From: Wanchaivirus PDP110P2
Length of the DNA: 44,134 nucleotides
Sequence record: OZ035745.1
Strand: one strand, 5' to 3'
The position numbers and the translations under genes were made by a program. The notes under the pieces were generated by a model. It saw only the letters and a program-made list of their open reading frames with translations, made no database searches and was not told the origin of the DNA. Shown piece after piece: positions 32,404-32,873 of the stretch (position 1 is its first letter; every line of letters starts with the position of its first letter).

Positions 32404-32718
32404 CTAATAAAATACCCAATTTTCTGTTTCTTGGTTGTGTCCAAAGTTATATTCAATATCTGGTGTTGATGTGTCAATATTCTTCATCCCATCAACAAGA
32501 GTTGATACAACAGCAAAATCTTGTTTGATTCTCATTAAATGGTATTTCTTCCGGCGCAATAAACTTTCAATGGCAAGTTTCTTCGTTGGGAATGCAAAAG
32601 ATCTTTCTGCATTTTTTGCTACTTTCTTAATTGCATATCTATTTTTCCTTTGTTTCCATTCCTGTAACCACTGATTTGGTGCTGGTTTAAAATTAACAAT
32701 CCAATGCGCAGGAACCAA
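32404..32718 (-). CDS. AT-rich ORF (downstream half of overlapping pair; possible frame-disrupted gene)
   Basis: TTG is the only possible start; frame open upstream to a TGA; overlaps ORF 32619..32873 in -1 frame; region AT-rich. Confidence 0.35.
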   Translation of the reverse strand: MVPAHWIVNFKPAPNQWLQEWKQRKNRYAIKKVAKNAERSFAFPTKKLAIESLLRRKKYHLMRIKQDFAVVSTLVDGMKNIDTSTPDIEYNFGHNQETENWVFY

Positions 32719-32873
32719 CCATGCATAATGCTCTGTCTGAGAAAAGCTATATATTGAAGTGCGAATATTTTTATCCCATCTTCTTCAACTGTCGCCTGGA
32801 ATCTCCAGAAAACAGGCATTCCATCATGTTCAGTTTCTGATTCAGGAAAAGGTACGCTCCATGATTTTGTCAT
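32619..32873 (-). CDS. AT-rich ORF (upstream half of overlapping pair)
   Basis: ATG 32873 (MTKSWSVPFPESETEHDGMPVFWRF...); overlaps downstream ORF by about 100 nt. Confidence 0.35.
   Translation of the reverse strand: MTKSWSVPFPESETEHDGMPVFWRFQATVEEDGIKIFALQYIAFLRQSIMHGWFLRIGLLILNQHQISGYRNGNKGKIDMQLRK

Follow-up and report, generated by a model that had tools for sequence, protein, structure and literature searches.

A probable single-base deletion in an early leftward gene of the 933W L0079/phrog_1636 family in Wanchaivirus PDP110P2

The genome of Wanchaivirus PDP110P2 (sequence record OZ035745.1; a stretch of 44,134 nucleotides (nt), the whole of which is called the window here) carries on its minus strand, at 32404-32873, a pair of overlapping open reading frames (ORFs) that an earlier note had described as possibly one frame-disrupted accessory gene. 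According to the ORF listing, ORF1 runs from 32873 to 32619 (minus strand, 84 codons, ATG start) and ORF2 from 32718 to 32404 (minus strand, 104 codons, TTG start); they overlap by exactly 100 nt (32718-32619), make up 470 nt together, and are related by a -1 shift of ORF2 relative to ORF1 (32873-32718 = 155). The TTG at 32718 is the first possible start of the ORF2 frame, which is open upstream as far as the TGA at 32787-32785 and contains no other start codon up to that point. The coordinates, lengths, starts, overlap of about 100 nt, shift and open frame had been reported in the earlier note and were all confirmed in the sequence. As described below, the pair represents one disrupted gene of the 933W L0079/phrog_1636 family, a pseudogene, and its state is probably due to a genuine and recent deletion of a single base in codon 45 of one gene, which would make it a null allele. 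The features of the locus are the following:

32404..32873, minus strand: the whole disrupted gene, a 470-nt remnant of the 471-nt, 156-codon gene of the 933W L0079 / phrog_1636 family
32742..32873, minus strand: native codons 1-44 (MTKSW...YIAF), where ORF1 still reads the family sequence
32741-32619, minus strand: out-of-frame read-through of ORF1, ending at the TAG 32621-32619
32740..32741, minus strand: the lesion, one A missing between these bases, CAT (His45) having become C-T in the context CTTTTC^TCAGAC
32404..32739, minus strand: native codons 46-156 and the stop (QTEHYAWLVPAHW...NWVFY, then the stop), now in the -1 frame
32876..32883, minus strand: Shine-Dalgarno sequence GAGGTGAG, with its GAGG core 6 nt before the ATG 32873, as read from the sequence
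32777-32763, minus strand: A-rich tract GGGATAAAAATATTC, not the shift site, the same in the broken copy and in three intact aligned copies
32691-32685, minus strand: T_TTA_AAC heptamer, in frame 0 of ORF1 only through the upstream deletion and judged coincidental
32280..32301, minus strand: terminator-like hairpin and T-run, ~100 nt past the gene stop and before ea10/DUF2528 (31885-32253)

ORF2 as listed is only the portion of native codons 46-156 that follows the first possible start of its frame. The Shine-Dalgarno sequence GAGGTGAG is identical in all aligned homologs and is the single translation start signal of the gene; reading the sequence before the TTG at 32718 revealed no Shine-Dalgarno-like element.

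The nature of the pair is established by its relatives. A query of 751 nt across the locus, compared with phage and E. coli records, found matches in 325 phage and 2254 E. coli records (2238 of 5426 complete genomes), mostly at 95-99% identity. The matching feature of phage 933W is one coding sequence (CDS), L0079 (AAD25424.1; 471 nt, 156 amino acids), located between N and ssb/ea10, and two E. coli prophages likewise have a single 471-nt CDS annotated as 'hypothetical protein'; WP_334598843 and WP_097335881 are among the E. coli prophage orthologs. The alignment of the window copy with L0079 and the two prophage CDSs has a mean column identity of 99%, with ~98% identity between the window copy and its relatives, and contains a single 1-nt gap (column 146), where the relatives read GCT TTT CAT CAG ACA and the window reads GCT TTT C-T CAG ACA. 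The same site is CTTTTCATCAGAC in the relatives and CTTTTC-TCAGAC in the window, with the gap between 32741 and 32740, in codon 45 (His), and when an extra A is placed after 32741 the minus strand reads CTTTTCATCAG. A blastn indel scan recovered the same 1-nt deletion against all three loci compared (L001, L002 and L003), and in tblastn the homolog match changes from frame -3 to frame -2 at the lesion. The shift had previously been placed in the A-rich tract GGGATAAAAATATTC, which proved to be the wrong position, given that the tract is unchanged in the three intact homologs and that the lesion sits 22 nt downstream of it. The lost base is a single A with C before it and T after it, in no homopolymer, simple repeat or Dam/Dcm motif.

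The two ORFs match the N- and C-terminal parts of one 156-amino-acid protein at 84% and 96-98% identity, respectively, and their pairing is therefore, judging by these alignments, not a chance coincidence. The protein reconstructed across the lesion, whose comparison with profile databases had been proposed together with that of related prophage loci, aligns with phrog_1636 over positions 1-156 of 156 (E = 2.7e-112) and is 97-98% identical to its relatives P0001-P0003. The relatives have one intact gene and not two with separate conserved starts, and in this respect the idea of a single disrupted gene was upheld. Family members consist of one uninterrupted ORF of ~156-163 codons, while the window copy is split over frames -3 and -2; it shares with them the location on the leftward early strand of the pL promoter in a lambdoid prophage.

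Evidently, the intact gene is well conserved. Protein searches found full-length relatives of 156-163 amino acids, with identities as low as 55%, in genera that include Escherichia, Pectobacterium, Brenneria, Cronobacter and Rosenbergiella. The family alignment shows no variation at F44, T47 and Y50 and a conservation of at least 90% at H45 and Q46, which means that the deletion strikes the most conserved N-terminal motif; the contiguous F44-H45-Q46-T47...Y50 is lost in the window copy, where the frame that encodes F44 is no longer that of Q46, T47 and Y50. The intact 39-mer that spans this site is present in at least 120 IMG/VR viral contigs. All 111 full copies in the fetched loci, representing 71 distinct DNA alleles, are intact 156-codon ORFs, a count that tests disruption elsewhere in the gene only, as the copies were picked by the intact 39-mer at the lesion. 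The ratio of nonsynonymous to synonymous polymorphism (pN/pS) among them is 0.105, and on this measure the intact copies are under strong purifying selection. The gene behaves as a mobile accessory cassette that moves within the leftward operon: in Pectobacterium and Brenneria prophages it is again one single gene, placed directly upstream of xis and int and sharing their strand. The homologs in the Pectobacterium odoriferum and Brenneria uluponensis prophages (L007 4001-4477 and L008 4001-4477) adjoin xis-int and not an antiterminator.

The intact protein, of ~18.6 kDa, was modelled with AlphaFold2 from an alignment of 49 sequences (mean predicted local distance difference test score 95.8; predicted template modelling score 0.82). 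The model has strands at residues 19-30, 33-46, 50-55 and 83-86, short helices at 56-61 and 66-74, and a long helix at 98-130, and it places residue 45 inside the second strand (33-46) of the core beta-sheet. The protein combines an acidic beta-sheet N-domain, a very basic segment (residues 76-125; isoelectric point 11.2, 15 K+R) and an acidic conserved tail. A Kyte-Doolittle scan found no transmembrane segment (maximum 19-residue hydropathy 0.56), and from its sequence the protein is predicted to be soluble. Translation from the normal Shine-Dalgarno sequence and ATG of the window copy would yield 44 native residues followed by 40 out-of-frame residues, and the remaining 111 native codons would be left in the -1 frame, without a ribosome-binding site of their own. 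If ORF2 were translated from its TTG, the product would start at strand 3 and would lack strands 1-2, and the break, in the middle of the second strand, would remove the conserved FHQTxxY motif. According to the model, neither fragment should fold or work, and for this reason the product would be non-functional and the allele a null one.

Among the collections searched, the deletion allele is unique to this genome. The allele survey used a query of 70 nt centred on the lesion, which covers most of the A5 tract, and it returned 797 places in E. coli genomes and 79 phage records, all at 95-99% identity. None of these 876 database places matches the deletion allele at 100%, the matches listed all being at 98.6%, that is, one gap, and exact searches for the 38-mer of the deletion allele in viral, genome and metagenome contigs gave no match. 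With the deletion set aside, the window copy is only 2 nt from the nearest intact allele, and the deletion event is for this reason considered recent. The window copy also has the rare substitutions R77K and L120F. A sister phage with an intact gene was not found among the carriers of these residues: L085, which alone among the other copies has F120, and the two copies with K77 (L022 and L067) have only short mosaic segments in common with the window.

Differently broken copies of the gene exist in public data (P0026, P0030 and P0032), and because they differ in the site of the break it can be said that the gene undergoes sporadic decay without a recurrent hotspot. P0026 is frameshifted in an A6 run after KKVAK, and in P0033 the first 28 residues are fused to an unrelated coiled-coil protein. 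Altogether, five copies (P0026, P0030, P0031, P0032 and P0033) are damaged or chimeric, with breaks at differing sites, and from these sequences the gene appears to be both a target of decay and a mosaic junction.

The question of whether the missing base is a mutation or an error has to be weighed with care. Six related loci supplied 389 ORFs; 243 of these have a match in the window, and this gene is the only one among them to be frame-split. Over the 33.2 kb that can be aligned at 93% identity or more, the lesion is the only indel of a length other than a multiple of three that splits an ORF; the other indels of this kind appear, by their coordinates, to be intergenic or to be compensating pairs in diverged stretches, and none splits an ORF. 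It is well known that the indel errors of sequencing platforms gather at homopolymers or at methylation (Dam/Dcm) motifs, and that those of long-read, 454 and Ion Torrent data concentrate in homopolymers. Since the assembly is otherwise clean and the lesion lies outside any homopolymer or methylation motif, a real mutation is favoured, and we infer that the deletion is in the DNA rather than in the assembly.

Several points weigh against this reading. The consensus sequence is what it is judged from, and one residual assembly error could be present in it; an error, too, would appear as a unique allele one base away from hundreds of intact copies; no second disabling lesion has accumulated in the window copy; and the loss of function is deduced from conservation and the predicted structure. 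The strongest of the alternatives is accordingly a sequencing or assembly artefact, in which the phage has an intact 471-nt gene and one A was dropped from the consensus, the very outcome that the earlier note had named as its refutation. It agrees with the uniqueness of the allele among ~880 database copies and three contig collections, with the 2-nt distance between the rest of the gene and the nearest intact allele, and with the strong purifying selection that acts on the gene elsewhere. On the other hand, the absence of any other frame break in the 33 kb of the window that can be compared with relatives speaks against an assembly prone to indels in general, a missing base that is a single A with C and T as neighbours falls outside the usual contexts of platform indel errors, and natural decay of the gene is known from P0026, P0030 and P0032. 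Taken together, these observations fit the suggestion of a recently inactivated gene, which is considered probable, and leave the artefact as the less probable explanation, unlikely although with a weight that has to be taken seriously.

Leaky or programmed -1 frameshifting, also raised in the earlier note, would restore a product in one of two ways: tRNA-Phe could slip at the UUU of codon 44 on C-UUU-UC, which is predicted to give a full-length protein with His45 changed to Ser (H45S), or a slip could occur on U_UUA_AAC (32691-32685). It is true that CTTTTC permits a perfect -1 re-pairing of tRNA-Phe exactly at the lesion, and that a canonical X_XXY_YYZ heptamer is found in the overlap, 50 nt downstream of the lesion. 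The two-frame layout, however, is present in 0 of 111 full homolog copies. At the frame junction itself there is no canonical X_XXY_YYZ heptamer, because T_TTT_C is not a tandem-slip heptamer and GCT TTT CTC allows only a single-tRNA slip, and the downstream T_TTA_AAC is in frame merely as a by-product of the deletion, the intact homologs reading AAT TTT AAA (N-F-K). A slip at the latter site would, moreover, give a product without the conserved HQTEHYAWLVPAHW segment, and a slip at the former would replace His45, a residue with at least 90% conservation among close family members. As for stimulatory elements, the 89 nt downstream of each site are not more stable than shuffled sequences (minimum free energy z = +0.39 and +0.50), and no Shine-Dalgarno-like stimulator is evident in the sequence upstream of either site. 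Any slip would be expected to stay at the background level, which is typically no higher than 1%. With the heptamer search, downstream folding and layout conservation all negative, programmed frameshifting was rejected, and frameshifting in either form is considered very improbable; background -1 slippage on CUUUUC, which would give traces of full-length H45S protein, is a less likely reading of the locus than that of a new type of protein discussed below.

A phase-variable contingency gene turned off by slipped-strand mispairing would agree with an AT-rich accessory gene that has short A and T runs. Nevertheless, the lesion is outside any simple-sequence repeat, none of the ~880 other copies varies at this site, and neither the T4 run nor the full A5 tract differs in the three intact aligned copies. 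Runs of 4-5 bases, such as those found here, are far shorter than the lengths that give useful switching rates. Phase variation was rejected after the survey of copies across the lesion, and its probability is taken to be negligible. Equally negligible, and refuted by the homolog comparison, is the proposal of two independent small genes that merely overlap, for although both ORFs have at least 84 codons, they correspond in order to the two halves of a single conserved protein, 40 of the 84 residues of ORF1 are out-of-frame and have no homolog, ORF2 has only a TTG start and no Shine-Dalgarno sequence, and separate genes are annotated here in no database genome examined.

The context of the gene is a lambdoid early-left operon, with the ORF pair on the leftward early strand, and the description of the locus as AT-rich and part of this operon was correct: its guanine and cytosine content is 35.7%, against 50.2% for the window, which puts it among the lowest 0.6% of 470-nt segments, and it is downstream of a cI-like repressor and a pL-like promoter. 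The main neighbours are the following:

34821-35552, minus strand: cI-like repressor (S24/helix-turn-helix), upstream of the ORF pair
35619-35891, plus strand: cro-like gene
34682-34654, minus strand: sigma-70-like, pL-like promoter, upstream of the ORF pair
31885-32253: ea10/DUF2528, downstream of the ORF pair
30776-31411: Erf, downstream of the ORF pair

The genes of the kil region are also downstream, and four small minus-strand genes lie between the pL-like promoter and the ORF pair. The first gene past this promoter (34053-34496, minus strand, 147 amino acids) matches only phrog_13686, of unknown function, and is followed by a terminator-like hairpin at 34051-34034; no match to the N family was found among the minus-strand ORFs scanned between pL and ea10. 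The other three are in 33017-33973 (minus strand) and encode 68 (33017-33223), 113 (33414-33755) and 73 (33752-33973) amino acids. The first two gave nothing significant in Pfam, PHROG, NCBIfam or PADLOC, and the third has sub-threshold Rad50 zinc-hook and zf-Di19 matches, which suggest a small zinc-binding protein.

On a larger scale, the window is a hybrid. Its structural half (1-22000) is 91-94% identical to the Klebsiella phages GZ7, Mulock and P18-100, and the half with the early, replication and lysis genes (22000-44134) is that of an E. coli lambdoid phage, to which PDP110P1 is 99.1% identical over 55% of this half and HK106, HK022 and Sf6 match at 93-97%. A 1-nt difference from HK106 at ~36984 (plus strand), in an alignment that is otherwise 97.9% identical, falls inside the O-like replication gene (36479-37378); the 299-codon ORF of this gene is uninterrupted despite it, and the difference probably arises in the iteron region from an alignment edge or a mosaic boundary. 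In some relatives (hits H1, H40-H44 and H57) the match to the locus falls into two parts, separated by an additional 0.3-0.7 kb that carries other small genes, for example of the Nmad5 family or for a DUF7446 protein, which suggests that the interval around the terminator of the gene is an insertion hotspot for accessory genes.

Sequence searches of Pfam, NCBIfam, PADLOC and the PDB gave nothing significant for the family, and its PHROG matches (1636, 13631 and 25384) are all labelled 'unknown function'. A profile search of 1.84 billion representatives retrieved 87 proteins at E <=1e-3, mostly of 130-155 amino acids, and most of them share an h-E-T-x-C/H strand and a RFA..T...A...L..RK..QL.HL helix. 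Foldseek against BFVD gave 11 matches at E <=1e-3, from hosts that include Erwinia, Achromobacter, Sinorhizobium, Rhizobium and Tenacibaculum, none of them functionally annotated. The deposited annotations of the distant phage homologs are all hypothetical, and literature searches on L0079, the accessions, phrog_1636 and ea10/933W returned nothing on this gene. At a guess, made with low confidence, the intact protein would act early as a dispensable accessory protein and bind either a nucleic acid or a host protein. A bolder proposal, rather doubtful at present, is that the gene may encode an early protein of a new kind, directed at the host or against its defences, with this phage as a natural knockout that shows it to be dispensable for propagation.

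The finding itself is an ordinary one, a conserved hypothetical phage gene with a unique one-base deletion, and the frameshift adds no new mechanism. For annotation, it means that both ORFs should be merged as one frameshifted pseudogene (or the sequence corrected, if there is an error), and not entered as two hypothetical proteins or a recoding site. It also means that Shiga toxin (Stx) and lambdoid phages can lose a strongly conserved early accessory gene without the phage genome being destroyed. What remains of interest is the protein family, which has no solved structural relative and may merit a functional test, rather than the frameshift.

Having discussed that, the locus can be compared with systems that are better known. 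The dnaX gene (A_AAA_AAG) and the G/GT frameshift sites of tail assembly chaperones have, like the window, two overlapping frames in a -1 relation. In the known -1 frameshift systems, however, the layout, the heptamer and often the stimulator are conserved in homologs, whereas in the window there are no such signals, and the layout occurs in this one genome only.

The interval of ral, orf28 and sieB of phage lambda, together with rexAB, had been brought into the discussion by the suggestion that the locus lies in the region of exclusion genes such as sieB or rex. This suggestion is right as regards map position, which is all that the two have in common (AT-rich accessory genes between the pL-proximal regulator and ea10/cIII), and it does not extend to homology: the hhalign probabilities of 0.8% against SieB, 0.1% against Ral and 0.2% against RexB indicate no relationship. 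SieB and RexB are membrane proteins. Homology to SieB, Ral and RexB was accordingly rejected, and the family also has no significant PADLOC match and no transmembrane segment.

A shared core is found in the phrog_13631/phrog_25384 superfamily (130-155 amino acids; Pantoea phage LIET2, Erwinia phage phiEa2809, Pseudomonas phage Medea1), namely a beta-hairpin that contains the h-E-T-x-C/H strand, followed by RFA..T...A...L..RK..QL.HL on the long helix. This wider superfamily is recognised at profile E values of 1e-10 to 1e-3 and by Foldseek against BFVD at E values down to 6e-7; it has only 20-30% identity, occurs in virulent and temperate phages, and allows no functional transfer. The closest counterpart is L0079 of 933W, which shares with the window copy ~98% nucleotide identity, the same Shine-Dalgarno sequence, ATG, stop, strand and operon, and the downstream neighbour ea10/DUF2528; the two differ in the upstream neighbour, which is N in 933W and, in the window, the three small ORFs and the 147-amino-acid phrog_13686 gene.
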